DNA of 64,000 nucleotides, taken from NCBI GenBank assembly GCA_002327765.1, contig DCUH01000133.1, positions 58,885 to 122,884 on the forward strand, read 5' to 3'. Below the pieces are notes generated by a model. That model searched no databases and had not been told where the DNA came from. It was given only the letters and a program-made list of their open reading frames with translations. This document shows, piece after piece, positions 4,893 to 22,300 of the stretch (position 1 is its first letter; every line of letters begins with the position of its first letter). The stretch comes from a bacterium UBA2219 (GTDB lineage Bacteria > Desulfobacterota > Deferrimicrobia > Deferrimicrobiales > Deferrimicrobiaceae). The translations under genes were made by a program, and so were the position numbers.

Positions 4893-5881
4893 TTACTTCA
4901 GAAGCTTTCCGGAGGCCATGAGTTCCTTGGTCTCTTTTTCCTTGGCTTCGAGCCAGGTAACGTACTCCGCGCCGGTAATGAACGCAGGCTTCAGCCCCAT
5001 GTCTTCCGTGTACTTCTTCCACTCGGGCGTCTCGGTGACCTTCTTCATGACGTTGACGTAGAAGTCGATCTCTTCCTGCTTTACACCCGGAGCCATGAAG
5101 ATGCCGCGGAGCATCAGGTAGCTGATGTCCTTGCCCGTGGCCTCTTTCATCGTGGGAACGTCTTTCCAGCCGGCGAAAGGCATTCTCTCGTGGTCGAGCA
5201 GAGCCAGCGGCTTCAGCCGGCCGGCTTTCCAGTGGCTGACCGCTTCCGCCGGGTTGTTGACCGTCGAGTCGACGTGCTTGCCGACGAGCTCGACCGCGAC
5301 CGCGCCGCCGCCCTTGAACGGGACGTAGTTGAACTTCACGCCGAACTGCTGCTCGAGGAGGACCGTGATGATCTGGTCTTCCTGCTTTGCACCCGTGCCG
5401 CCCATGGTGAACTTGCCGGGGGTCTTCTTGACCTCGGCGAAGTAATCATTGGGGGTCTTGTACGGAGTCTCGGCGTTGACCCAGAGGATGAAATAGTCGA
5501 GCGCCAGCCGCGCGACCGGGGTCATGTCCCGCCAGTTGAAGGGAACGCCCGTCGCGAGCGGCGTGGTGAACAGGTTGTCGAGGGTGATGATGATGACGTG
5601 CGGGTTGCCCTTCTGGCCCTTCACATACATGAAACCTTCGGCACCGGCTCCAGCGGACTTGTTGATGACGACGAAGGGTTTGGGGGAAAGCTTGTGCTTG
5701 GAAATGATCGGAGCGATGAAGCGAGCCATAACGTCCGCGCCGCCGCCGGCACCTGCCGGGATGATGAACTCGACGGGCATCTTCGGCTCCCAGGCTTTTG
5801 CTGTGCCAATTGAGGTGATGACCAGCGCCAATGAGCATGCGAGAACCATGAGAATCTTAAGCCCAGTAAACCTCTTGCTCA
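4893..5881 (-). CDS. tctC: Tripartite tricarboxylate transporter substrate-binding protein TctC (Bug family)
   Basis: Periplasmic binding-protein fold with signal peptide MSKRFTGLKILMVLACSLALVITSIGTAKA. Start chosen at internal ATG (rev-comp of 5879-5881), preceded by a GGGGG RBS. The longer ORF-track start adds a non-signal N-extension. Confidence 0.85.
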
Positions 5882-6165
5882 TGGAATACACCCCCATGTG
5901 AGATTTTTTGTTGCCGACCTCAACAGTCACATACAACAAGCCTCCTCCCTTCTTTTGGAGCATCCCCGGGGCTTGATCGAACAGGAACGCTGTTCGTCCA
6001 TCCTTCTGTCCGGGCCAACGCCAAGGCAGGCCTCAGGCACAGTGTCCCGGGAGCGGCTCCAGGGGGGATAAACCTGGCGGCGCAACCGGGACCGATTATA
6101 TCTCCTGCAAGGATAGACGATTTTCCCAACTTTGCATTCAAAATTTTTGTGTCCAGAAGTGGAGC

Positions 6166-6193
6166 GAGGGACACAGGTCGCCCTGTGTCCCTC
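6166..6193 (-). terminator. Perfect 12-bp hairpin GAGGGACACAGG-tcgc-CCTGTGTCCCTC immediately 3' of porB; possible terminator of the por operon
   Basis: Seen directly: 12-bp perfect inverted repeat with 4-nt loop, 16 nt after the porB stop. The downstream U-tract is weak (acaaaaauuuug begins 8 nt later), so the call is tentative. Confidence 0.3.
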
Positions 6194-6208
6194 GTCCGGT
6201 GCACCGTG

Positions 6209-7219
<1,011 letters not shown>

Positions 7220-9522: not shown

Positions 9523-10251
9523 CTACTGCACCCTGCTCTTTCTCCCCATCATTTCGAAAAGGCTGTTCTCTATGTCGATCAGGTGCTCGCGCATGGCCGC
9601 CGCCGCGCCTTCCGGATCGCGGGCCTTGATCGCGTCGAGCAGCTCCCTGTGGCGCTGTATGGATTTCTCGGGCCTGCCCTCGACCTGGAGAAAATTGTCC
9701 CGGCTCTCCAGGAAAAGGCTCATGTTGTTGTCGACAATGTGGAGGAGAAAACGGTTCCTCGCCGCACCGGCCAGGAGGTAATGGAAGTTCCGGTCGATCT
9801 CCGTGCCCGACCCGCCCCTGGTGATCTCCCGCTCCTGGAGGGCCAGGGTTTTCTCCATCACCTGGATCTCTTCGTCGGTCGCGCGTTCGGCAGCGAGCCA
9901 TGCGAGCTGCGGCTCGATCAGCCGGCGCATCTCGAACAGCTCCCGCTGGCCGTCCTTCTCGGAACAGATGACGGAGGCCAACGGGTTGACCAGCGATTCC
10001 ACGGGATGTTTCGCGATGTAGGTGCCGTTGCCTTGACGGCTCTCGAGAAGGCCCTGACTTTCCAGGGAACGGATGGCCTCGCGGACGGAAGAACGGCTGA
10101 CCCGAAAGACCTCAGCCAGTTCCCGCTCGACGGGGAGCTGATCTCCGGACTTGAATCGACCCTTGTCGATCATGTCTTTGATCTTCGCAACGATTTCCTC
10201 ATACACTCTCGTCTTCTTGACCGGCTTGAACAGCTTTAACTTCTTCTTCAC
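9523..10251 (-). CDS. GntR-family transcriptional regulator, FadR/FCD subfamily
   Basis: N-terminal winged HTH (YEEIVAKIKDMIDKGRFKSGDQLPVERELAEVFRVSRSSVREAIRSLE) plus a C-terminal FCD ligand-binding domain. 242 aa. Confidence 0.85.
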   Translation of the reverse strand: MKKKLKLFKPVKKTRVYEEIVAKIKDMIDKGRFKSGDQLPVERELAEVFRVSRSSVREAIRSLESQGLLESRQGNGTYIAKHPVESLVNPLASVICSEKDGQRELFEMRRLIEPQLAWLAAERATDEEIQVMEKTLALQEREITRGGSGTEIDRNFHYLLAGAARNRFLLHIVDNNMSLFLESRDNFLQVEGRPEKSIQRHRELLDAIKARDPEGAAAAMREHLIDIENSLFEMMGRKSRVQ

Positions 10252-10276
10252 CCGGGCTCCCCGCCGAAAGAGGGCG

Positions 10277-12436
10277 CTAGCGTTTCAGCGCGCGGGCTTT
10301 GATCGTGGAAGCGGCCCCGGCCAGTTCGACCGCCTGGTCGAAATGCTCCGAGGAGATCGTAAGCTTCGAGAAATCGGGCTTCTCCTCCTTGCAGATCGCC
10401 TCGTCGACGACGGCGAGAACGGCCTTCTTGCACATGGTTTCGATGTCGGCCCCGGTCCACCCGTCGGTCTTGTCGGCGAGCACGTCGATGTCGACCTCGG
10501 TGCGGAACGGCAGCGTCTGCAGGAACATCTGCAGGATCTCCAGCCGCTCCTCCCTCGGGGGAAGCGGGAACTCGATGACGGAATCGAAGCGGCCCGAGCG
10601 GAGCAGCGCGGGCTCCATCAAGTCGATCCGGTTGGTGGCGGCGAGGTACATGACGCCCAGGGAGCTCTGCAGGCCGTCGAGCTCGCGGAACAGCTGGCTG
10701 ACGAGCCTCTGGGAGGCCTGCCCGGCGTCCTCCGCCGAACGGGCCGGCGCCATGGTCTCGATCTCGTCGAAGAACAGGATGCAAGGCGAGGCCTGCTTGG
10801 CCCGCTTGAAGACTTCCCGGAGCCCCTTTTCCGATTCCCCGACCCACTTCGACAGCAGGGTGGGCGGGTCGACGGTGAACAGGGTCATGCCCATCTCGCC
10901 CGCGATGGCCTTGGCCATCATGGTCTTCCCGGTCCCGGACGGGCCGGAGAAGATCACGCCCCGGGGAGGCGTCAGGCGGGAGCCGGCGAAGAGGGAAGAG
11001 CCCCGCAGGGGCAGCCGCATCATGGAAAGCAGGTTCTTCTTGATCTGGTGCAGACCGCCGATGTCCTTGAAGAAGACGTTGGGACGCTCGCTCATGAACT
11101 CGCGCGTCGAGGTGGGCTCGACCTCCTTGTAGGCGGTCATGAAGTCCCCGGCGGTTACCTTGACCTCCTGCCCCTCTTCCAGCTTGGGCTTCTGGTCCAC
11201 CTCGAACTTGACCGACGGCATGAGGCGCCGCAGGGCCGCCATGCCCGCCTCGGTGCAGAGGGCGGAGATGTCGGCGCCGACGTACCCGTGGGTGATCTCG
11301 GCCAGGCGCTCCAGATCGACGTCGTCGGCCAGCGGCATCTTGCGGGAGTGGATCTTCAGGATCGCGAGGCGCTCATGCCGCTTCGGCACGCCGATCGTGA
11401 TCTCGCGGTCGAACCGGCCCGGGCGCCGGAGGGCGAAGTCGACGAGCTCCGGCATGTTGGTCGCGCCGATGATGACGATTTCCCCGCGGCCGACGAGGCC
11501 GTCCATCAAGGCCAGGAGCTGCGCCACGACACGCTTCTCCACGTCGCCCACGACGGTGGCCCGCTTCGGGGCCAGGGCGTCCATTTCGTCGAAGAAGATG
11601 ATGGCGGGGGCGTTCTTCCGGGCTTCCTCGAAGACCGCCCGCAGCTTGGCCTCGCTCTCTCCGTAGAACTTGTGGATGAGCTCGGGGCCGTTCACGTGGA
11701 GGAAGTGGGCCCGGACCTCGTTGGAGATGGCCCGCGCGATGAGGGTCTTCCCGGTTCCCGGGGGCCCCGACAGGAGGACTCCCTTGGGCGGGTCGATGCC
11801 CAGCTGGGCGAACATCTCGGGGAACTTCAGGGGAAGCTCGATCATCTCGCGGACGTGGCCGAGCTCCTTTTCCAGGCCGCCGATGTCCTCGTAGGAGGTC
11901 CGCGTCGCCTTCTCGGAAGCGAAATCGGTGCCCCGGAACGAGATCTCGGTGTGGGCGGTGATCCGGATGGCACCGCGGGGGCTGGCGCCCTCCACCATGT
12001 AGAACACCGGCTTGGTGCCGAACATGACGATCTGGATCCGGTCGCCGATGACGACGTGAAGGCCCTGAAGGAGCAGCCGGATGTGGGGGATCTCCGCGTC
12101 CTTCGGCAGCGGGCTGCGGACGTCGACGGGGGCCAGGATGACGCTGTCGGCCTGCTTATAGGGAACCTTCTGGACGGTGCATTCCTCGTCGACGGAGATC
12201 TGCGCGTTGTCGCGCGTGATGCCGTCGATCAGGACCAGCCCCTGGCCGCAGAACTGCTGGGGTGCGTGCGCGGCGCGGGCCACGGTCGAGCGGCGGCCGG
12301 TTATGAGGAGAGCGTCCCCGGGAATCGCGTGGAGCCGGTCCAGGTCGTCCGGGTCCAGCCGGGCCAGGCCCTTGCCTTCATCCTCGATAAACGCTCTAGT
12401 AACTTTCAGGGAAAAATCATCGGGAGATTTTGCCAC
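10277..12436 (-). CDS. Cdc48/VCP-like double-ring AAA+ ATPase
   Basis: 719 aa. CDC48-type N domain followed by two AAA modules, each with Walker A (GPPGTGKT / GPSGTGKT), Walker B (IIFFDEMD / ILFFDEIE) and second-region-of-homology arginines. Confidence 0.9.
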   Translation of the reverse strand: MAKSPDDFSLKVTRAFIEDEGKGLARLDPDDLDRLHAIPGDALLITGRRSTVARAAHAPQQFCGQGLVLIDGITRDNAQISVDEECTVQKVPYKQADSVILAPVDVRSPLPKDAEIPHIRLLLQGLHVVIGDRIQIVMFGTKPVFYMVEGASPRGAIRITAHTEISFRGTDFASEKATRTSYEDIGGLEKELGHVREMIELPLKFPEMFAQLGIDPPKGVLLSGPPGTGKTLIARAISNEVRAHFLHVNGPELIHKFYGESEAKLRAVFEEARKNAPAIIFFDEMDALAPKRATVVGDVEKRVVAQLLALMDGLVGRGEIVIIGATNMPELVDFALRRPGRFDREITIGVPKRHERLAILKIHSRKMPLADDVDLERLAEITHGYVGADISALCTEAGMAALRRLMPSVKFEVDQKPKLEEGQEVKVTAGDFMTAYKEVEPTSTREFMSERPNVFFKDIGGLHQIKKNLLSMMRLPLRGSSLFAGSRLTPPRGVIFSGPSGTGKTMMAKAIAGEMGMTLFTVDPPTLLSKWVGESEKGLREVFKRAKQASPCILFFDEIETMAPARSAEDAGQASQRLVSQLFRELDGLQSSLGVMYLAATNRIDLMEPALLRSGRFDSVIEFPLPPREERLEILQMFLQTLPFRTEVDIDVLADKTDGWTGADIETMCKKAVLAVVDEAICKEEKPDFSKLTISSEHFDQAVELAGAASTIKARALKR

Positions 12437-13350: not shown

Positions 13351-13427
13351 TGGTCGGGATGACTGGATTTGAACCAGCGACCCCCTGGTCCCGAACCAGG
13401 TGCTCTACCAGGCTGAGCCACATCCCG
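13351..13427 (-). tRNA. tRNA-Pro (anticodon CGG), CCA encoded
   Basis: Hand-folded cloverleaf: acceptor CGGGATG/CATCCCG; D arm GCTC-AGCCTGGTA-GAGC; anticodon arm CCTGG-TTCGGGA-CCAGG (anticodon CGG); T arm GCTGG-TTCAAAT-CCAGT; discriminator A; 3' CCA. Confidence 0.9.
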
Positions 13428-14175: not shown

Positions 14176-14853
14176 TCAGGCCTTGAGGCCGACGGCCGAG
14201 CGGATGTTCCGCTTCATGCGCCCGATCGTCTCCTTGTAGTCCGGCGTCCCGAAAACCCCCGACCCCGAGACGATCACGTTCGCCCCGGCAGCCGCCACTT
14301 CCCCGACATTGTCGGCCTTGATCCCGCCGTCCACCTGGATGTCCACGTCCAGCTTCGCCCGCCGGATCTGCGAGCGGAGCAGCTCGATCTTCGCCAGCGA
14401 CGCCGGGAGGAACGCCTGCCCCCCGAACCCGGGGTTGACGCTCATGATCAGGACCATGTCCACGTCCTGGAGGACCCATTCGACGGCGGAAAGCGAGGTG
14501 CCCGGGTTCAGCGCCACGCCGGCTTTCCTGCCCAGCTCCCGGACCCGGGCCACGGCGCGCTGGAGGTGGGGCGTGGCCTCCGGGTGGACCGTGATGATGT
14601 CGGCCCCCGCACCGGAGAACGCGTCGATGTACCGCTCGGGCTCGACGATCATCAGGTGCACGTCCAGCGGTATCGTGGCGCATTTCCTGATCGCCTCGAC
14701 CACGAACGGGCCGATGGTGATGTTGGGGACGAACCTGCCGTCCATGACGTCCACGTGGAGGAGGTCGGCCCCCGCCTCCTCGATGGCCCGGATCTCCTCC
14801 GCCAGCCTCCCGAAGTCGGCGGACAACAGCGACGGCGCGATGTAATAGTCCAT
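14176..14853 (-). CDS. rpe: Ribulose-phosphate 3-epimerase
   Basis: Typical Rpe sequence (IAPSLLSADF...LHVDVMDGRFVPNITIGP...GGQAFLP...DGGI). 225 aa, with AGGGGAG RBS. Confidence 0.9.
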   Translation of the reverse strand: MDYYIAPSLLSADFGRLAEEIRAIEEAGADLLHVDVMDGRFVPNITIGPFVVEAIRKCATIPLDVHLMIVEPERYIDAFSGAGADIITVHPEATPHLQRAVARVRELGRKAGVALNPGTSLSAVEWVLQDVDMVLIMSVNPGFGGQAFLPASLAKIELLRSQIRRAKLDVDIQVDGGIKADNVGEVAAAGANVIVSGSGVFGTPDYKETIGRMKRNIRSAVGLKA

Positions 14854-14880
14854 GGATCTCCCCTTTCCCCGTATCCTACC

Positions 14881-14929
14881 TTAGAACCGGGACGTAGATG
14901 AGTTCTTCCGCAGTTCAGGGACACTCATG
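14881..14929 (-). repeat. Copy D of the ~50-nt repeat family, inverted relative to A/B/C so that it points toward rpe
   Basis: Rev-comp reads CATGAGTGTCCCTGAACTGCGGAAGAACTCATCTACGTCCCGGTTCTAA. It lies 30-75 nt upstream of the rpe start. Confidence 0.6.
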
Positions 14930-14967
14930 AAATCCCGGTTTGTCCGACTTGTCGGGCCGAATCCTTT

Positions 14968-15018
14968 CATCTCTGTCCCTGTTTTGCGGAAGAACTCATC
15001 TACGTCCCGGTTTTGTGG
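14968..15018 (+). repeat. Copy A of the ~50-nt repeat family
   Basis: CATCTCTGTCCCTGTTTTGCGGAAGAACTCATCTACGTCCCGGTTTTGTGG. It lies upstream of the caspase-like gene. Confidence 0.6.
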
Positions 15019-15029
15019 TCCGCCTCCTG

Positions 15030-15080
15030 CATCTCCGTCCCCAGGCTGGTGAGGAACTCATCAACGTCCCGGTTCCGGGG
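15030..15080 (+). repeat. Copy B of the ~50-nt repeat family (tandem to A)
   Basis: CATCTCCGTCCCCAGGCTGGTGAGGAACTCATCAACGTCCCGGTTCCGGGG. It ends 22 nt before the caspase ATG. Confidence 0.6.
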
Positions 15081-15102
15081 GCGGTCCTGGGGAGGTGCTT
15101 CC

Positions 15103-15963
15103 ATGAAGAAGAAGGCGTTGCTGGTCGGCATCGACAAATACCCGGATCCGCGCGACGGGTTGAGGGGGTGCGTCAACGACGTGCGCCTGATGGAGGAAAC
15201 GCTTCGCGGGGAATACGGTTTCTCCGGCAAGTCCGACATCCGCATCCTCGCCGACTCCCGCGCCACGACGGACGCGATCCTCGACGGCCTTTCGTGGCTC
15301 GTCGCCGGGGCGGCCCCCGGCGATTCCCTCGTGTTCCATTACTCCGGCCACGGTTCCCAGGTGCCCGACGACCGGCACGGCGACGAGACGTCCGACGGCC
15401 TCGACGAGATCCTTTGCCCCTACGACCTCGACTGGGACCGCCCGTTGACCGACGACCGCCTTGCCGCCGCGTGCGCCGGCATCCCGAGGGATGCGCTTCT
15501 TACCGTCATCCTCGACTGCTGCCATTCCGGCACCGGCCTGCGCGAGACCGGCCGCCCCTGCGGCCCGGCCCGCCCGCGCTTCATGCCGAGCCCGTCCGAT
15601 CCGTTCCCTCCGGCCCTGCGCCCCGTGCGCCGGTTCGGGGTATCCGTCACGAGGACCAAGGCGGTGCTGCTCGCCGCCTGCCGCGAAAACCAGACGTGCG
15701 CCGACGCCCCGATCGGCGCCTCCTGGCACGGCGCGCACACCTATTACCTCTGCCGGGCCTTGCGCCATGCCAACTGGATCGCAACCTATCGCGCGCTCGT
15801 CGCCTCCATGGGAGACGCCCTCGCCCGGGCCGGCTTCGACCAGGCCCCCCAGCTCGAGGGGCCGTCCCGCCTCCTGTCCTCCCGGTTCCTGGAACCTCCC
15901 CCGAAGGGGGGCGCCCGGAGGGAAACGGGGATGCGCATCGGGCTCCCCCTGCTGTGCCGGTGA
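15103..15963 (+). CDS. Caspase-like peptidase (peptidase C14, orthocaspase), stand-alone catalytic domain
   Basis: ALLVGIDKYPD...LRGCVNDV, His in HYSGHGSQ, and catalytic Cys in DCCHSG. 286 aa with no fused effector domain. GGGGAGG RBS. Confidence 0.85.
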   Translation: MKKKALLVGIDKYPDPRDGLRGCVNDVRLMEETLRGEYGFSGKSDIRILADSRATTDAILDGLSWLVAGAAPGDSLVFHYSGHGSQVPDDRHGDETSDGLDEILCPYDLDWDRPLTDDRLAAACAGIPRDALLTVILDCCHSGTGLRETGRPCGPARPRFMPSPSDPFPPALRPVRRFGVSVTRTKAVLLAACRENQTCADAPIGASWHGAHTYYLCRALRHANWIATYRALVASMGDALARAGFDQAPQLEGPSRLLSSRFLEPPPKGGARRETGMRIGLPLLCR

Positions 15964-16065: not shown

Positions 16066-18378
16066 ATGCCGGTCCGCGCGGCTTGTCTGGGATACCCTCG
16101 CATCGGGATCGACCGGGGATTGAAGAAGGCGCTCGAAAGCCACTGGGCGGGGAAGCTTTCCGCGGAGCAGCTCAAAGGCGTAGCCTCCGCGCTCCGCCGG
16201 GCCGCCTGGATGTCGATGAAGGTCGCCGGGATCGACCATATCCCGGGCAACGACTTTTCGCTGTACGATCACGTGCTCGACATGGCGGTCGCCGTCGGCG
16301 CCGTCCCCGCGCGCTACCGCCGCATCGAGGACCCTCTCGCCCGCTATTTCGCGATGGCGCGGGGGCTTCAGGACCACGCGGCGGGCATCGATGTCCCGGC
16401 GCTCGACATGACCAAGTGGTTCGACACGAATTACCACTACATCGTCCCGGAGCTGGAGGAGCGGCAGGCGTTCCGGCTCGACGCGTCGAAGATCCTGTCC
16501 GAGGTGGAGGAGGCGCGCTCCCTCGGGGTCGAGATCCGCCCCGTGGTCCCCGGCCCGGTCACCTTCCTGATGCTGTCCCGGTTCGGGCCCGGCGCGCGCG
16601 GTGGGCGCGTTCCCCTCGACCTTCTCGGCGCGCTGCTGCCGGTCTACGGGGAGCTGCTCGCGGCGCTGGCCGCTCGGGGCGTCGCGTGGGTCCAGGTCGA
16701 CGAGCCCTGCCTGGTCCTGGATCTCGACGACCGCGCCGCGGAAGCGTACCGGATCGCGCTTCGCCGGCTCGCCGCCTGCGAAAGCCGCCCGCGGCTGATG
16801 GTCGCTACCTGCTTCGGCCCTGTCGCCCGCAACCTGCCTCTGTTCGCGGAGTCGGGATGCGACGCCCTCCACGTCGACCTGGCGAGGGCCCCGGGCCAGC
16901 TGCAGGCGGTCCTCGACGGGCTTCCTCCCGAAGCGCAACTCTCCCTCGGCGTGGTGGACGGCCGCAACATCTGGCGCGCCGACCTGGACGCCGCCCACGC
17001 GCTCGTCCGGCGCGCCCGCGAGGCGCTCGGGGAGGAGAGGTTGTCCGTCGCCCCCTCCTGCTCCCTGCTCCACGTGCCGATCGACCTCGCCGCCGAGAAG
17101 CGGCTCGACCCCGGGCTGAAAGGCTGGCTCGCCTTCGCCGCCCAGAAGCTCGCGGAGGTGCGGGCGCTGGCGGACGCGGCCGGAGACGACGCGCCGGCGG
17201 GGCCGTTCTTCGAGGAGGCGCGCGCGGCGCTGGCCGGGCGGCGGGCGTCGCCCCGGACGCGCGACCCGGAGGTTCGGGCCCGGGCCGCCGCCGTGGACGC
17301 GGCGATGCTGCGCCGGGCCGCCCCCTTCGGGGAGCGCATCGCGAAGCAGCGGGCGCGCTTCGGCCTGCCGCTCCTGCCGACGACCACGATCGGCTCGTTC
17401 CCCCAGACCGCGGAGGTCCGCGAGGCCCGCGCGAAACGGCGGAAGGGGCAATGGACGGAAGAGGAGTACGAGGGCTTCCTCCGGGAGCAGGTGCGAAGGT
17501 GCGTCGCGACCCAGGAGAAGCTGGGGCTCGACGTCCTGGTTCACGGGGAGTTCGAGCGGAACGACATGGTCGAATACTTCGGGGAGAAGCTCGAGGGGTA
17601 CGCCTTCACCGAAAACGGCTGGGTCCAGAGCTACGGCTCCCGGTGCGTGAAGCCCCCCGTGCTCTTCGGGGACGTGTCGCGGCGCGCCCCCATGACGGTG
17701 GAATGGTCGGGGTTCGCCCGGTCGCTTTCGCGGCGGCCCATGAAGGGGATCCTCACCGGCCCGGTCACGATGCTCCAGTGGTCGTTCGTCCGGGACGACC
17801 AGCCGCGCGAGGAGACGTGCCTGCAGGTGGCGCTCGCGCTCCGCGACGAGGTGGCCGACCTCGAGGCCGCGGGGATCGCCATGATCCAGGTTGACGAGCC
17901 GGCGATCCGGGAAGGGCTGCCGCTGCGCCGCGGGGACCGGGCGGCATACCTGCGTTGGGCGGTCGACGCCTTCCGCCTCGCCACGAGCGGGGTCCGCGAC
18001 GAGACCCAGGTCCACACGCACCTGTGCTATTCGGAGTTCGGGGACATCATGGATTCCATCGTGGAAATGGACGCGGACGTCCTTTCCATCGAGTCGTCCC
18101 GCTCCGGGATGGAGCTGCTCTCCGATTTCCGACGCTGCAGCTACCCGAACGAGATCGGCCCCGGCGTCTACGACATCCATTCGCCGCGTGTTCCGTCCGC
18201 CGGGGAAATGGAGGAGCTGATCGCGAAGGCGGCCGAGGCGATCCCGCCGGCGCGCCTTTGGGTGAACCCGGACTGCGGCCTCAAGACGCGCGGCTGGACG
18301 GAGGTCGAGGCGGCGCTCGGGAACATGGTGGAAGCCGCGCGCCGGGTGAGGGAGCGGCTCGGCCCCCGGGAGGGCTGA
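16066..18378 (+). CDS. metE: Cobalamin-independent methionine synthase (5-methyltetrahydropteroyltriglutamate--homocysteine S-methyltransferase)
   Basis: 770 aa with N- and C-terminal MetE (UroD-like) barrels, a conserved N-terminus (VRAACLGYPRIGIDRGLKKALE) and a C-terminal Zn-binding region (HTHLCYSEF...DCGLKTR). Confidence 0.95.
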   Translation: MPVRAACLGYPRIGIDRGLKKALESHWAGKLSAEQLKGVASALRRAAWMSMKVAGIDHIPGNDFSLYDHVLDMAVAVGAVPARYRRIEDPLARYFAMARGLQDHAAGIDVPALDMTKWFDTNYHYIVPELEERQAFRLDASKILSEVEEARSLGVEIRPVVPGPVTFLMLSRFGPGARGGRVPLDLLGALLPVYGELLAALAARGVAWVQVDEPCLVLDLDDRAAEAYRIALRRLAACESRPRLMVATCFGPVARNLPLFAESGCDALHVDLARAPGQLQAVLDGLPPEAQLSLGVVDGRNIWRADLDAAHALVRRAREALGEERLSVAPSCSLLHVPIDLAAEKRLDPGLKGWLAFAAQKLAEVRALADAAGDDAPAGPFFEEARAALAGRRASPRTRDPEVRARAAAVDAAMLRRAAPFGERIAKQRARFGLPLLPTTTIGSFPQTAEVREARAKRRKGQWTEEEYEGFLREQVRRCVATQEKLGLDVLVHGEFERNDMVEYFGEKLEGYAFTENGWVQSYGSRCVKPPVLFGDVSRRAPMTVEWSGFARSLSRRPMKGILTGPVTMLQWSFVRDDQPREETCLQVALALRDEVADLEAAGIAMIQVDEPAIREGLPLRRGDRAAYLRWAVDAFRLATSGVRDETQVHTHLCYSEFGDIMDSIVEMDADVLSIESSRSGMELLSDFRRCSYPNEIGPGVYDIHSPRVPSAGEMEELIAKAAEAIPPARLWVNPDCGLKTRGWTEVEAALGNMVEAARRVRERLGPREG

Positions 18379-18603: not shown

Positions 18604-19098
18604 TTGGAACCGAAATGGTACTTGGTCAAGACGAAGGCCCTGAACGAGAACCGGGTGGTCACTCGCCTCCTCGGCGCCGGGTACGAAGTCCTTTTCCCCA
18701 AGATCCGGAAGAAGTCGCGGCGCCACAAGGGCGTCTTCGACGTCCGGCCCCTCTTTCCCACGTATCTCTTCGTCCTTTTCCGCGGGGACGAGCTCAAGAC
18801 CATCAAGTACACCCACGGCGTCGCCCGCGTCATCTGCTTCGGCCTGGAGCCCCAGGAGGTCGATGAAGAGATCATCGTCGCGATCCGGGAGCGGATGGAC
18901 GCCGAAGGGTTCGTCAAGCTCGAGCCGAAGAAGGTCGAACTCGCCCCCGGCCAGAAGGTCAAGATCGGCGAAGGCCCCTTCGCGGGGCTCGACGCCATCT
19001 TCCTCGAGGAGCTTCCCGACCGCGAGCGCGTAGTCCTGCTCCTCGACGCCGTCTCCAGCTATAAGCTGACGATCGGGAAGAGCGACCTGGAGACGTAG
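18604..19098 (+). CDS. NusG-paralog transcription antiterminator (RfaH/UpxY/LoaP-like; NGN + KOW)
   Basis: MEPKWYLVKTKALNENRVVTRL... NGN domain and a C-terminal KOW (GQKVKIGEGPFAGLDAIF). Start chosen at TTG 18604, with a GGGGAG RBS 6 nt upstream. The ORF-track ATG at 18469 would add 45 non-conserved residues. Confidence 0.75.
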   Translation: MEPKWYLVKTKALNENRVVTRLLGAGYEVLFPKIRKKSRRHKGVFDVRPLFPTYLFVLFRGDELKTIKYTHGVARVICFGLEPQEVDEEIIVAIRERMDAEGFVKLEPKKVELAPGQKVKIGEGPFAGLDAIFLEELPDRERVVLLLDAVSSYKLTIGKSDLET

Positions 19099-19238
19099 GC
19101 CCCCTCCGGCTGCGGGCCGGAACACCCCAAAAAAACAGAAAGAACAGCCCCCGGAGGTTGATATGATCAGGGGTACTGTCGCGTCCGGAGAAAATCATCC
19201 TGAACGCCACGGGGGGATCATTTGCCGCTCCCCTTATG

Positions 19239-19250
19239 GGCGGTAGCTTG
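19239..19250 (+). promoter_or_regulatory. ops-like element GGCGGTAGCTTG (consensus GGCGGTAGnnTG) in the leader of the polysaccharide operon
   Basis: Exact match to the 12-nt operon-polarity-suppressor consensus. It lies on the non-template strand, 140 nt downstream of the NusG-paralog gene and 125 nt upstream of the first export gene. Confidence 0.35.
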
Positions 19251-19373
19251 CCCGCCGGCCCGGCAACGCTCTTGTGATCGGAAGCGAAATTGGTAAACTG
19301 GCCCGAACAGCTTGTAAAGCGCCATGAAATAAGGAAAAGGGCGCCCTTCCGGAAGCAGAGGAGGACGAATCTC

Positions 19374-22300
19374 TTGCGGTTCCTGCCCCGCCATCTCTGT
19401 CCCCGTTCTGGTGAAGAACTCATCAACGTCCCGGTTCTGTGGGTCGCTCTCCTTCTCGCGCTCCTCCTGGTGCTTTCTGCGGGCGGGCCCGCCGGCGCGG
19501 CGGAGCCGCTCTCCTCCGGGGTCACTCCCGAGCAGGCGGCCGCGATGCGGCAGCTCGTAGGGTCCGACCCCGAGGCGGCGAAGGCGGTGGAGGAAACGCT
19601 CCGGAGGAAGGCGGAAGAAGCGGAAGGCGGGGGCGGGAGCGCGGCCGGGACGGCGGGCGAGGCGGAAAAGAGGGACCTCTTCGGGGGAAAAGCCGCGCCC
19701 GAAGGGTCGGAGGCCCGGGCCGCGCGGATCGCGGCGGAGCCGCGGTACGACTGGACGAAGTCCACCTACGTCGGCGGGCTCTTCGGGAAGCGACTCACCG
19801 CCCGGGAGCGGGAGACGCTGCCCCATTTCGGGCACGACCTGTTCGCCTTCTCCTCCGTGACGCTGCAACCTCATGAAAACCTGCCGGTTTCGCCGGGATA
19901 CGTCGTCGGGCCGGGCGACGAGATCGTGGTGCGGATGTGGGGGCGCGTCGAGGGGACGCAGCGCATGGTGGTCGACCGCGACGGGAAGATCTTCTTCCCG
20001 AAGTTCGGCTCCCTCTACGTGGCCGGGAAGACCTTCGACGAGGTGCGGGCCTTCCTCATGGGGAAGGTCCAGACGATCGCCGAGGTCAGCTCCGACGTCG
20101 GCCTGGGGCAGATGAAGGGGATCCGCGTCTCCGCGATGGGCGAGGTGCGCTTCCCGGGGTGGTACAGCGTCAGCTCGCTCCACACGGCGATGCAGGCGCT
20201 CTCCGCCGCCGGGGGGATCAAGGACATCGGCTCGCTGCGCCGGATCCTGATCCGGCGCGGGGGAGGCGTGGCCGGGGAGGTCGACCTGTACGATTTCCTC
20301 CTCAAAGGGGACACGCGCGGGGACATCCACCTGCTGCAGGGCGACGTCGTCTTCGTCCCGGTCGTGGGGAAGCTCGCGGCGGTCGCGGGGGAGGTCCGCC
20401 GCCCCGCCATCTACGAGCTGAAGGGGGAGCGGTCGCTGCTCGACCTGATCCGCCTCGCGGGCGGGTTCACCCCGGCGGCCTACAAGCGGCGCGTCCAGGT
20501 GGAGCGGCTCGAGGGGAACACCGCGCGCGTGGTCTTCGACGCCGACGCCGACGCGCTGGAAAAGGGCGGGCACGGCTTCGAGCCGGCCGACGGCGACTTG
20601 GTGCGCGTCTTCCCGATCGTCCTGGCCGAGGAAAACGCGGTCCGTGTCGAGGGGAACGTCCAGCGCCCCGGCCGGTACGAGATGAAGAAGGGCATGACGG
20701 TGGGATCCCTCTTCAAGGGGGAGAAGGAGTTCCTGCCCGACACGTATTTCGACTACGCGCTGATAACCCGCCTCGTGCCTCCCGACCTGCGCAAGGAGGT
20801 CGTCCCGGTCAACCTGCGCGAGATCGTGCTGGAGCGCAAGCCCGGCTCGGACGTGCCCCTCAAATCCCGCGACACGCTGCGGGTGTTCCGCAGGAGCGAG
20901 TTCCGGGACTACCCGAGGGCGTCCATCTCCGGGGAGGTGCGGCTGGTGCGGGCGGGGCTGCTCAAGGAACCGGGGCTCGACAACCAGGCGGAGGAGAGGT
21001 TGCTCCGGGACGAGGCGGGCGGGGAACGGCTCGACGGTCAGGCGTCAGGGCGGGAAGCGGAGCGGCGCGCTGCCGCGTTCCCGGGCGCGGACGGCCTGCG
21101 CTCCGGCATGCGCCCCGTGGATTCCGTCGCCGCCGCCGATCTCCGCGATCGGGAGTTGCGCCGGATGGATCCGCGCAGGGCGGATCCGCCCGACCGGATG
21201 CTCCCCGACAGGGAACGGGACGCCCGCGGCGCGGCGCCCCGGGACGCGAACGGCCGCGACGCCAACCGGCGCGACCCGTCGGCCCGCGAAAGGGCGCTTC
21301 GGGACGCGGCCGACCGCGGCATGGACACCCGCGCCGAGGAGATCCTGAAGGCGGAGGAGCGCGGGGCGGACGTCCGCGACGTGGACGCCCCCAGGGCGGA
21401 GTCCCCCTTCTGGCGCGACGCGGTCTCCTTCGAGATCCACGGCGGGACGCGGGTGGCCGACCTCGTCCGGATGGCGGGCGGCCTCACCCGCATGGCGCAC
21501 CTCGATCGCGCCGAGATCGTCCGCGTGGACGAGAACCGCAACTACCGGACGATCTACTTCCACCTGGGCAAGGCGGTCGCCGGCGACCCGCAGGAGAACA
21601 GGCTCCTGGAAAACGAGGACCAGGTCCGCATCCACTCGGTGCTGGAGATGTCGTCCCGCAAGACGGTGTCCGTCTCGGGCGAGGTGAACCTGCCGGGCGA
21701 CTTCGTCCTCACGGAAGGGATGAAGCTGTCCGACCTGCTGTTCAAGGCCGGCGGTTTCCGGGAGAGCGCCTACCGGAGGGAGGCCGAGCTGGTGCGCCGG
21801 GAGGTCAACGTCCAGGGCGACCTCGTCAAGACGCAGGCGGTGGTCGTCTATCCCGACCGCGCGCTGTCGGGCGACAACACGGCGGACATCCCGTTGAAGG
21901 CCGACGACTACCTCTACGTCCGGCAGATCCCCGACTGGGGCGAGAAGATCGTCGTCACGCTGGCGGGGGAGTTCCGCTTCCCGGGGACCTACGCGGTGGC
22001 GAAAGGCGAGCGGATCAGCTCCGTGATCGAGCGGGCGGGCGGCTACACGACGGGCGCCTACGTGAAGGCCGGCGTCTTCACCCGCGTCTCCACCCGCGAG
22101 GCGCAGCAGCAGGCGATCGACCGGATGATCGAGGAGCTCGAGACCTCGATCGCGGAGAAGGGGCAGGAGGTGGGCGCCGCCCTCGACAAGGAGGACGTCG
22201 AGTCGAACCGGCAGCTTCTCGAGGCCCGAAGGAACCTCGTCTCCCAGCTGCGGAAGCTGAAGGCCCAGGGGCGGGTCATCGTGCGCCTTCGGGACCCCGA

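Follow-up and report, generated by a model that had tools for sequence, protein, structure and literature searches.

In the 64-kb stretch of DNA analysed here (contig DCUH01000133.1; hereafter the window), four copies of a 51-nt repeat module were read directly from the sequence. Three of them, D, A and B, lie between rpe and a caspase-like gene, and the fourth, C, lies at the 5' end of a gene for a Wza-like polysaccharide-export protein. These copies are very probably members of a dispersed family that resembles the REP (repetitive extragenic palindromic) sequences and their doublets, the REPINs, and that forms the terminal inverted repeats (TIRs) of a gene for a Y1 transposase similar to the RAYTs (REP-associated tyrosine transposases), of the type named TIRtron or TIRYT (subclass 2.1). 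The element is of an ordinary kind; the sequence family is new.

A dispersed family of inverted pairs

Each module consists of two direct units of about 22 nt (CATCnnnGTCCCnnnnYTGnGG) with a period of 29 nt, is 51–53 nt long and ends with ...GTTCTGYGGTT; the sequence of the duplex module units is GTCCCGGTTCTGCGG. An earlier note on this DNA had described the four copies and their internal direct half-repeat, and both descriptions were borne out, with D being 2 nt longer (14879-14929) and C spanning 19392-19442. The bases that the note listed for an inner inverted repeat (AGAAC/GTTTT in A, GGAAC/GTTCC in B and AGAAC/GTTCT in C and D) are also as we read them, and we agree that the repeats are not CRISPRs: the units abut (spacings of 29, 33 and 29 nt), are found in either orientation and have a dispersed distribution. 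The 26-nt core AAGAACTCATCWACGTCCCGGTTYTG, with up to 3 mismatches allowed, matched the window exactly four times, at D, A, B and C, as compared to 0 matches in 100 dinucleotide-preserving shuffles of the 64-kb window, and a profile hidden Markov model built from 46 copies recovered no fifth copy in the window. The most diverged of the four is B, with 7 mismatches to C and the sole double change (G24/C47).

We scanned species-representative genomes with a 21-mer common to all four window copies (GAACTCATCNACGTCCCGGTT) and identified 24 loci, here labelled with an L and a number, of which 22 were from the metagenome-assembled genomes (MAGs) MFD04716.bin.1.102 and binchicken_co43_350, referred to below as the MFD and the binchicken MAG. 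The same scan of metagenomes added 9 further contigs. With approximate matching and nhmmer, a total of 61 full modules were collected from about 30 loci, at least 57 of them outside the window, and their alignment has a mean column identity of 87% and 24 invariant columns. Half-module matches in L005/L029 (WPS-2) and L010 (Amycolatopsis), which scored 21-22.5 bits, were set aside as chance or coding matches. The hosts of the family are uncultured, GC-rich bacteria; the names of homologues to the window proteins and the transposase, which are names and not a phylogeny, suggest that they belong to the former Deltaproteobacteria (Thermodesulfobacteriota), possibly to Candidatus Deferrimicrobiaceae. 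Over the shared regions, DNA identity with the window is about 90% for the binchicken MAG and about 84% for the MFD MAG.

The modules are organized as 18 adjacent inverted pairs, as clusters (e.g., D-A-B in the window) and as singles (e.g., C). Inverted pairs are the usual arrangement, with the 5' (CAT...) ends facing inward and the 3' (...GTTCTGYGG-TT) ends facing outward, at a distance of 0-173 nt from each other. In longer composites, of about 190-250 bp, each arm has a third unit (GGACTTCTCATCTACGTCCCGGTTCTGCGGTCC), and the two arms enclose a centre of about 45 nt. The outer ends are often trailed by mini-repeats of 11-12 nt (CGGTTYTGYGGT), and the base that follows the module is a T in 51 of 60 copies, with TTTT in 12 of the 60. 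The outer end was also compared to the DnaA box (CCACAGAAC versus TTATCCACA); CCACA alone is in common, and no such box is claimed.

Folded as DNA, single modules are no more stable than their shuffled counterparts (z from -0.83 to +1.36 for 8 sequences, both strands), while pairs fold as long hairpins (z of -12.6, -13.2, -18.8 and -14.0). In the window, D and A form an inverted repeat with 55-nt arms that are 84% complementary, and the predicted hairpin has a folding energy of -50.6 or -49.6 kcal/mol, depending on the strand (z of -12.6 and -13.2), and is interrupted by internal loops in module columns 4-6 and 13-17. The arms of the 18 pairs carry the same variants at the variable columns 20-24, where they are identical in 84 of 90 cells as compared to 61.3 +/- 4.1 when the partners are shuffled (84 being reached in 0 of 5000 shuffles), and complementarity is therefore maintained.

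Columns 13-17 behave in the opposite manner: the arms are identical in merely 14 of 90 cells, versus 37.5 +/- 5.8 for shuffled partners. The core occurs in an 'AA' form (xGAAC or xAAAC) and a 'TT' form (xGTTC or xTTTy), and 15 of the 18 pairs are heterotypic AA/TT, so that the core reads alike on one strand and the hairpin therefore contains an obligate 5-nt mismatch bubble. In D and in A, the bubble core is T-rich on the plus strand. A second, weaker bubble is formed by columns 4-6 (CTC versus GAG or GTG). The TT form is found in the modules on either side of the transposase gene and in most singles, including C; a few singles have the AA form (L021, L024 6787). The polarity of the AA and TT cores is flipped between the orthologous pairs of window/L027, L001/L012 and L014/L033. 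Simple inversion of the inner segment was considered for this flip and rejected, since between the window and L027 the markers at columns 4-6 keep their polarity when columns 13-17 are flipped, and since these two pairs have unrelated spacers.

A RAYT-like Y1 transposase gene flanked by modules

In close relatives, a gene for a RAYT-like Y1 transposase has the module as its terminal inverted repeat. An open reading frame (ORF) of 286-287 amino acids is located between a module on the minus strand upstream and a module on the plus strand downstream in L026, L015, L039-L042 and L043, at a distance of about 117-134 nt from the upstream module (L026, L039) and 27-35 nt from the downstream module (L026, L039, L043). 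In a comparison of the printed sequences, module A of the window and the downstream repeat of the L026 gene agree at 49 of 51 positions. The L026 ORF, from a metagenome contig, encodes a protein of 287 amino acids that matches the Pfam family Y1_Tnp (36.7 bits, cutoff 23), while the best NCBIfam model, REP_Tyr_transpos, scored 58.8 bits, short of the cutoff of 80. In an alignment with TnpA_REP from E. coli (PDB 4ER8), the segments NHFHLL and RYIHLNP of the protein fall on the HUH and catalytic-tyrosine motifs, and this structure was also the top Foldseek match to an AlphaFold2 model of the protein P0001, which is 93% identical to the L026 protein (predicted local distance difference test, pLDDT, of 83.6). 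The modelled fold indicates that the C-terminal domain is DnaA-domain-IV-like; the fold comparison is decisive, the sequence-level evidence being weak, and single-sequence Pfam and BLASTP searches returned no DnaA-like domain in the transposase.

Homologs to the gene, again between inverted modules and with the same spacing throughout, are present in L015 (the MFD MAG), in L020 and L039-L042 (assemblies of the binchicken type) and in L043 (a further metagenome). Wherever flanks are available (L015, L020, L026), the position of the gene is syntenic, and one such gene was recovered per MAG among the captured loci. Two contigs of 1.1 kb break off inside modules, as would be expected of repeats. 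The protein belongs to a large family (more than 4800 database matches, many of them labelled RayT by JGI). In the long-read MFD MAG, the gene (L015 5938-6781, minus strand) is in two frames, split near 6515; the split is probably an indel error, the alternative being a pseudogene.

RAYT-like genes with long terminal inverted repeats instead of hairpin REPs have been named TIRtrons or TIRYTs; many of their TIRs share the motif GGGGWSAS, and the TIR families can be moderately abundant and occur as dimers or clusters (Di Nocera, De Gregorio & Rocco 2013, PMC3733652). Most TIRYTs belong to TnpA_Y1 subclass 2.1, which consists of long proteins with a Bac_DnaA_C or helix-turn-helix-like C-terminus (Quentin et al. 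2018, PMC6006769). The family described here has all of these features: a Y1/HUH gene, a long protein with a DnaA_C-like C-terminus, flanking TIRs, the GGGGWSAS motif and dispersed copies. The motif is obtained as the reverse complement of consensus columns 6-13 (GGGGACAG), at the inner end of the module, and is exact, as judged by eye, in roughly half of the modules, while the rest (CCCT, CCCG) differ at the first G. Unlike the TIRtrons surveyed previously, the family has a new sequence and a host lineage outside those surveys; its TIR is built from 2-3 direct units with a 29-nt period plus the mini-repeats, and its short pairs are systematically heterotypic at the 5-nt core. In addition, no REP-like sequences were found near subclass 2.1 genes by Quentin et al. 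(PMC6006769), whereas the link from subclass 2.1 to a dispersed REPIN-like population is explicit here.

The similarity extends to the REP, BIME (bacterial interspersed mosaic element) and REPIN sequences and RAYTs of E. coli and Pseudomonas (PMC3116915, PMC3479197). Here as there, the repeats are short, abundant and mostly extragenic inverted doublets that are clustered downstream of genes and between convergent genes, and the cognate Y1 gene is flanked by repeats and syntenic in the related genomes examined; like REPINs (PMC3116915), the doublets form long hairpins with compensatory changes. Unlike a classical RAYT, the protein contains an additional DnaA-domain-IV-like domain. The heterotypic doublets recall the Y and Z types of REP in BIMEs. 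A GTAG tag can be read in the reverse complement of the unit (GGGACGTAGATG or GGGACGTTGATG), as GTAG or GTTG since column 34 is an A or a T, and CGTC is invariant (columns 36-39); neither of the two stands at the foot of a unit hairpin, the unit forming none. Insertion sequences (ISs) of the IS200/IS605 family, such as IS608 and ISDra2, are autonomous elements in multiple copies that have neither long TIRs nor such a dispersed non-autonomous population, in contrast to the single gene seen per genome, at a syntenic site, in this family.

By analogy with IS608, ISDra2 and TnpA_REP, with which the protein shares its fold, a mechanism can be proposed in detail, to which we give an even chance. As for other Y1 enzymes, the substrate of the transposase would be the folded single strand, and the enzyme would duplicate or maintain the pairs in trans. 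The conserved bubble would be the single-stranded recognition or nicking site, and the DnaA-like domain would dock on the repeated GTCCCGGTTCTGYGG units. If the direct half-repeats bind a protein, the likely candidate is this domain of the transposase and not a regulator of rpe, the caspase-like gene or wza.

Gene context, in-frame copies and conservation of sites

Gene context was assessed with an ORF caller based on GC content at third codon positions, which recovered the Pfam-supported genes of the window (Table 1). Among the 52 scorable outward ends of the 61 modules, a stop codon is faced in 38 cases and a start codon in 14. The earlier note had the copies oriented toward the adjacent genes, which is correct for the window, where the neighbours happen to be gene 5' ends, but not for the family. 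Copies are placed in any short intergenic spacer, at the 3' and the 5' ends of genes, and occasionally in frame within genes, and they appear to point at a neighbouring gene because outward-facing inverted pairs fill such spacers. Many of the adjoining ORFs extend 18-22 nt into the module and stop at its TGA (in the reverse complement of CTCATC).

The gap between rpe and the caspase-like gene measures 249 nt, of which 202 nt consist of the modules D, A and B with their spacers. The distance to the ATG is 25 nt from the outer (3') end of D for rpe (14853) and 22 nt from the outer end of B for the Peptidase_C14 gene (15103). The cluster therefore necessarily overlaps the promoters or 5' untranslated regions (UTRs) of the two genes, which is a consequence of the landing site and not its purpose. 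Scans for consensus promoters and terminators in 14700-15250 and 19050-19550 identified nothing in the modules and no sigma-70-like site. A terminator-like hairpin with a T-run is present just upstream of the Wza-like gene (19333-19350, minus strand), and a tRNA gene (13354-13427, minus strand; Rfam 66.5 bits) is located about 750 nt past the 3' end of rpe.

Table 1. Coordinates of the modules, their parts and neighbouring genes in the window, and of in-frame sites in other loci.
Feature	Position	Strand	Remarks
Module D	14879-14929	-	'AA' form, GTCCC-TGAAC-TG; nhmmer 59.5 bits, E 2.9e-17
Module A	14968-15018	+	'TT' form, GTCCC-TGTTT-TG; nhmmer 62.3 bits
Module B	15030-15080	+	Extra single copy, in tandem with A; nhmmer 47.6 bits
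Module C	19392-19442	+	Single copy, 'TT' form; nhmmer 62.8 bits
D-A inverted pair	14878-15019	.	REPIN-like doublet; D, left arm; A, right arm
D-A spacer	14930-14967		38 nt
D columns 13-17 (TGAAC)	14913-14917	-	Half of the D-A mismatch bubble
A columns 13-17 (TGTTT)	14980-14984	+	Bubble partner of 14913-14917
A units	first 14968-14989, second 14997-15018	+	Second is an example of the basic ~22-nt unit, CATCTACGTCCCGGTTTTGTGG
B units	15030-15051 and 15059-15080	+	
C units	19392-19413 and 19421-19442	+	
D units	14908-14929 and 14879-14900	-	
rpe	14176-14853	-	Pfam
Peptidase_C14 (caspase-like) gene	15103-15963	+	Pfam
metE	16066-18378	+	Pfam
Poly_export/SLBB (Wza-like) gene	ends 22715	+	Pfam
Wzz-like gene	from 22725	+	Pfam
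Wza 5'-end sites	window 19374-19442; L021 2049-2099; L037 10001-10050; L038 1377-1430		
LpxH-like in-frame insertion	L031 650-1099; L024 about 6049-6260; L016 7472-7693	- (L031)	Kept in three genomes

A coding role would fit the small ORFs that run through D-A on either strand, and also the A/T and C/T polymorphisms, which in one frame are synonymous. It was rejected as a general explanation for the repeats, since copies are shifted from frame to frame by the 29-nt period and the variable spacing of the pairs, and since A, B and C do not share a frame with respect to their genes; for some copies, translation in frame is nevertheless genuine. The in-frame modules can be likened to the Rickettsia palindromic elements, which are in-frame insertions within protein-coding genes. 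As for intragenic REPs (PMC3733652), in-frame copies are tolerated in coding genes, where they are a minority of the copies in this family. One example is an LpxH-like metallophosphoesterase ORF that reads through a module in frame (…GHFHQERLE-PQNRPQNRDVDEFSRSSGTEM-GPGS…).

The earlier note was right to place C at the 5' end of the Wza-like gene; the copy is inside the ORF and not upstream of it. It contributes 17 codons in frame (HLCPRSGEELINVPVLW) and is positioned between the conserved Shine-Dalgarno sequence (GGAGGA, 19360-19365) with the TTG start codon (19374) on one side and the hydrophobic core of the signal peptide on the other, being translated as the n-region of the signal peptide (MRFLPRHLCPRSGEELINVPVLW...). 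Wza-like homologs with only 32-44% identity still start with ...LLRNVPVLRF, and one unit is kept at that place across genera. L037 encodes this start with AACGTCCCTGTTCTGCGGTTC and L038 with a near-identical unit, the latter being the unit of a related sub-family with a different linker, which is dispersed in L038. This retention suggests conservation at the DNA level or repeated conversion.

In GCA_040961035.1, a more distant genome, the sub-family has the same core (GTCCCKGTTCTGCGG) and a different linker (GAGTTCTCAGGAA; L038 3466-3534, 4832-4904, 6224-6254), and a decayed remnant of it follows a gene end in L037 (5285-5312). L037 also contains a Peptidase_C14 gene (5537-6355) about 3.6 kb upstream of its Wza-like export gene (10001-11302), and the neighbourhood of caspase and exopolysaccharide-export genes in the window is thus partly conserved in this distant relative.

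Sites with and without a copy were observed. A module is present in the panC-panD spacer in L004 (2766-2862), L025, L028 (41-91) and L030 (741-791) and absent from the MFD MAG (L008 4484-4493). At this site, panC reads into the module and ends at its TGA, and in L028 and L030 the 5' CAT of the module is the start codon of panD on the opposite strand, with a Shine-Dalgarno-like GGGGA run before it. Similarly, a composite of about 290 bp in L014 (5085-5371) corresponds to 40 unrelated nucleotides in the orthologous spacer of L033 (916-955). No target-site duplication could be recognised at these two filled and empty sites, which are diverged; its lack fits Y1 transposition, for which sites of such divergence provide weak evidence. 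Orthologous sites may also carry composites of different build, as in L001 (102 bp) and L012 (219 bp), where the arms share site-specific variants.

The binchicken MAG has rpe and the caspase-like gene, which are adjacent in the window, on two different contigs, with a separate repeat cluster next to each gene. A breakpoint in synteny is located beside D, where homology to the window ends at most 21 nt from the module (window 14856-14876; L023 4389-4700; L018 6395-6700), which is consistent with repeat-mediated rearrangement.

Alternative explanations and implications

Several observations weigh against a family of transposase-associated repeats. Most copies are at orthologous sites across the two MAGs and the window, although these genomes are only about 84-90% identical in DNA; movement, if any, is rare or slow, and gene conversion or selection at the level of the host could explain the conservation of sites. 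No target-site signature or excision junction was seen at the two filled and empty sites, no homolog to the transposase is encoded within the 64-kb window, and the fact that a unit at the 5' end of wza is kept across genera may point to a local role. Unlike a classical REP, the single module of 51-53 nt is not palindromic, while the substrates of the only RAYT studied biochemically are hairpins. Finally, the terms TIRYT and TIRtron were found in the literature in PMC3733652 and PMC6006769 only, with no biochemical study, and the catalytic steps were therefore inferred by analogy.

Some of these observations would be accounted for if the copies were structural or regulatory elements maintained by the host and selected site by site, either as hairpins at the 3' ends of transcripts or as docking sites for a domesticated DnaA-like/Y1 protein. 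The conserved sites, the positions of pairs mainly between convergent genes where they abut stop codons, the T that follows the outer end in 51 of 60 copies (TTTT in 12) and the persistence of the wza unit across genera all agree with this explanation, as does the syntenic RAYT-like gene, seen once among the captured loci of each MAG, which is the pattern reported for domesticated RAYTs (PMC5581495). It is opposed by the lack of a canonical terminator in the D-A-B region and at C, by the many copies that are single, at 5' ends or inside ORFs, and by the differences in presence and absence and in the composites found at one site. We consider it unlikely, and it is partly compatible with a transposase-associated family. 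An equally small likelihood is given to a variant in which the repeats and the Y1 protein constitute a domesticated two-part system, with copies co-opted by the host and not merely selfish DNA. The DnaA-domain-IV-like domain would then read a 9-15-nt box (GTCCCGGTTCTGYGG) on the duplex and the HUH domain would nick the T-rich/A-rich bubble, with the Wza signal-peptide unit and the cluster in the promoter region of rpe and the caspase-like gene as co-opted examples. If so, the interaction of the protein with the repeats would influence expression, replication-fork processing or rearrangement at the co-opted loci, and would offer the first tractable substrate model for TIRYT or subclass 2.1 enzymes.

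A dimeric-protein operator was among the suggestions of the earlier note. It is very unlikely that the modules are operators through which a dimeric or multimeric transcription factor would jointly regulate rpe, the caspase-like gene and the operon for polysaccharide export, as might be supposed from the direct half-repeats with invariant cores, the location of all window copies at gene 5' ends and the conserved wza position in distant homologs. Copies that are nearly identical over 51 nt (mean column identity of 87%) go far beyond the similarity shown by operators, the arms of a pair co-vary to keep the hairpin, and 38 of the 52 scorable ends face stop codons. Moreover, the associations of D with rpe and of A and B with the caspase-like gene are not syntenic in the closest MAG, the region upstream of the caspase gene in L037 contains no module, and the scanned regions have no promoter-like site.

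The chances are slighter still for a structured cis-regulatory RNA, such as a leader or riboswitch-like element, or a small RNA with mutually exclusive hairpins. The earlier note had reported covariation in the AGAAC/GTTCT helix (columns 24-28 and 43-47), which does pair in 96.7% of cells, with G-C in place of A-T in B. This high value is found because the columns are almost invariant, and pairing is then uninformative: the double-sided change in B is the only one among 300 pair-cells, and 58 of 500 shuffles reach that number. At column 46, the change between C and T affects one side only (G-C versus G-T), and the A24-T47 pair is broken in six copies. An alternative hairpin between columns 14-18 and 24-28, also proposed in the note, pairs in 75% of cells without covariation, and mutually exclusive hairpins are not favoured by single modules that fold no better than shuffles, with z about 0. 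Copies are found on both strands relative to genes, and inside ORFs. At gathering and at permissive thresholds, Rfam searches of the window and both loci yielded only a tRNA elsewhere and a sub-threshold miRNA model (43.4 bits versus 80) over the D-A pair, which reflects the long hairpin, and a full-text literature search with the core sequences returned two chance matches only. The repeat therefore has no match in Rfam or among published sequences, in line with the note, which could name no matching element, and yet it is the terminal repeat of a known kind of element. On all three counts that the note had named as decisive for a regulatory leader or operator (orientation, covariation and relation to the terminal repeat of a known element), the findings go against such a reading.

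An origin as a miniature inverted-repeat transposable element (MITE) from an IS with a conventional DDE transposase, which would match the dispersed inverted-repeat architecture of 100-260 bp and the presence/absence polymorphism, is hardly credible given the lack of target-site duplications in the two filled/empty comparisons, the Y1/HUH gene as the only gene between inverted modules and the lack of a DDE transposase beside any module in the loci examined.

A motif shared by three unrelated genes is thus reclassified as a genome-wide repeat of the REP/REPIN type, which should not be taken for an operator or a leader in annotation or in the inference of regulons. Neighbouring genes obtain stop codons, a start codon or in-frame stretches of peptide from the repeats. 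The family provides a clean and previously undescribed tie of a subclass 2.1 (DnaA-like) Y1 transposase to a dispersed population of doublets, and with its long hairpin, conserved 5-nt mismatch bubble and repeated boxes, the pair is a candidate substrate for the subclass 2.1 enzymes.

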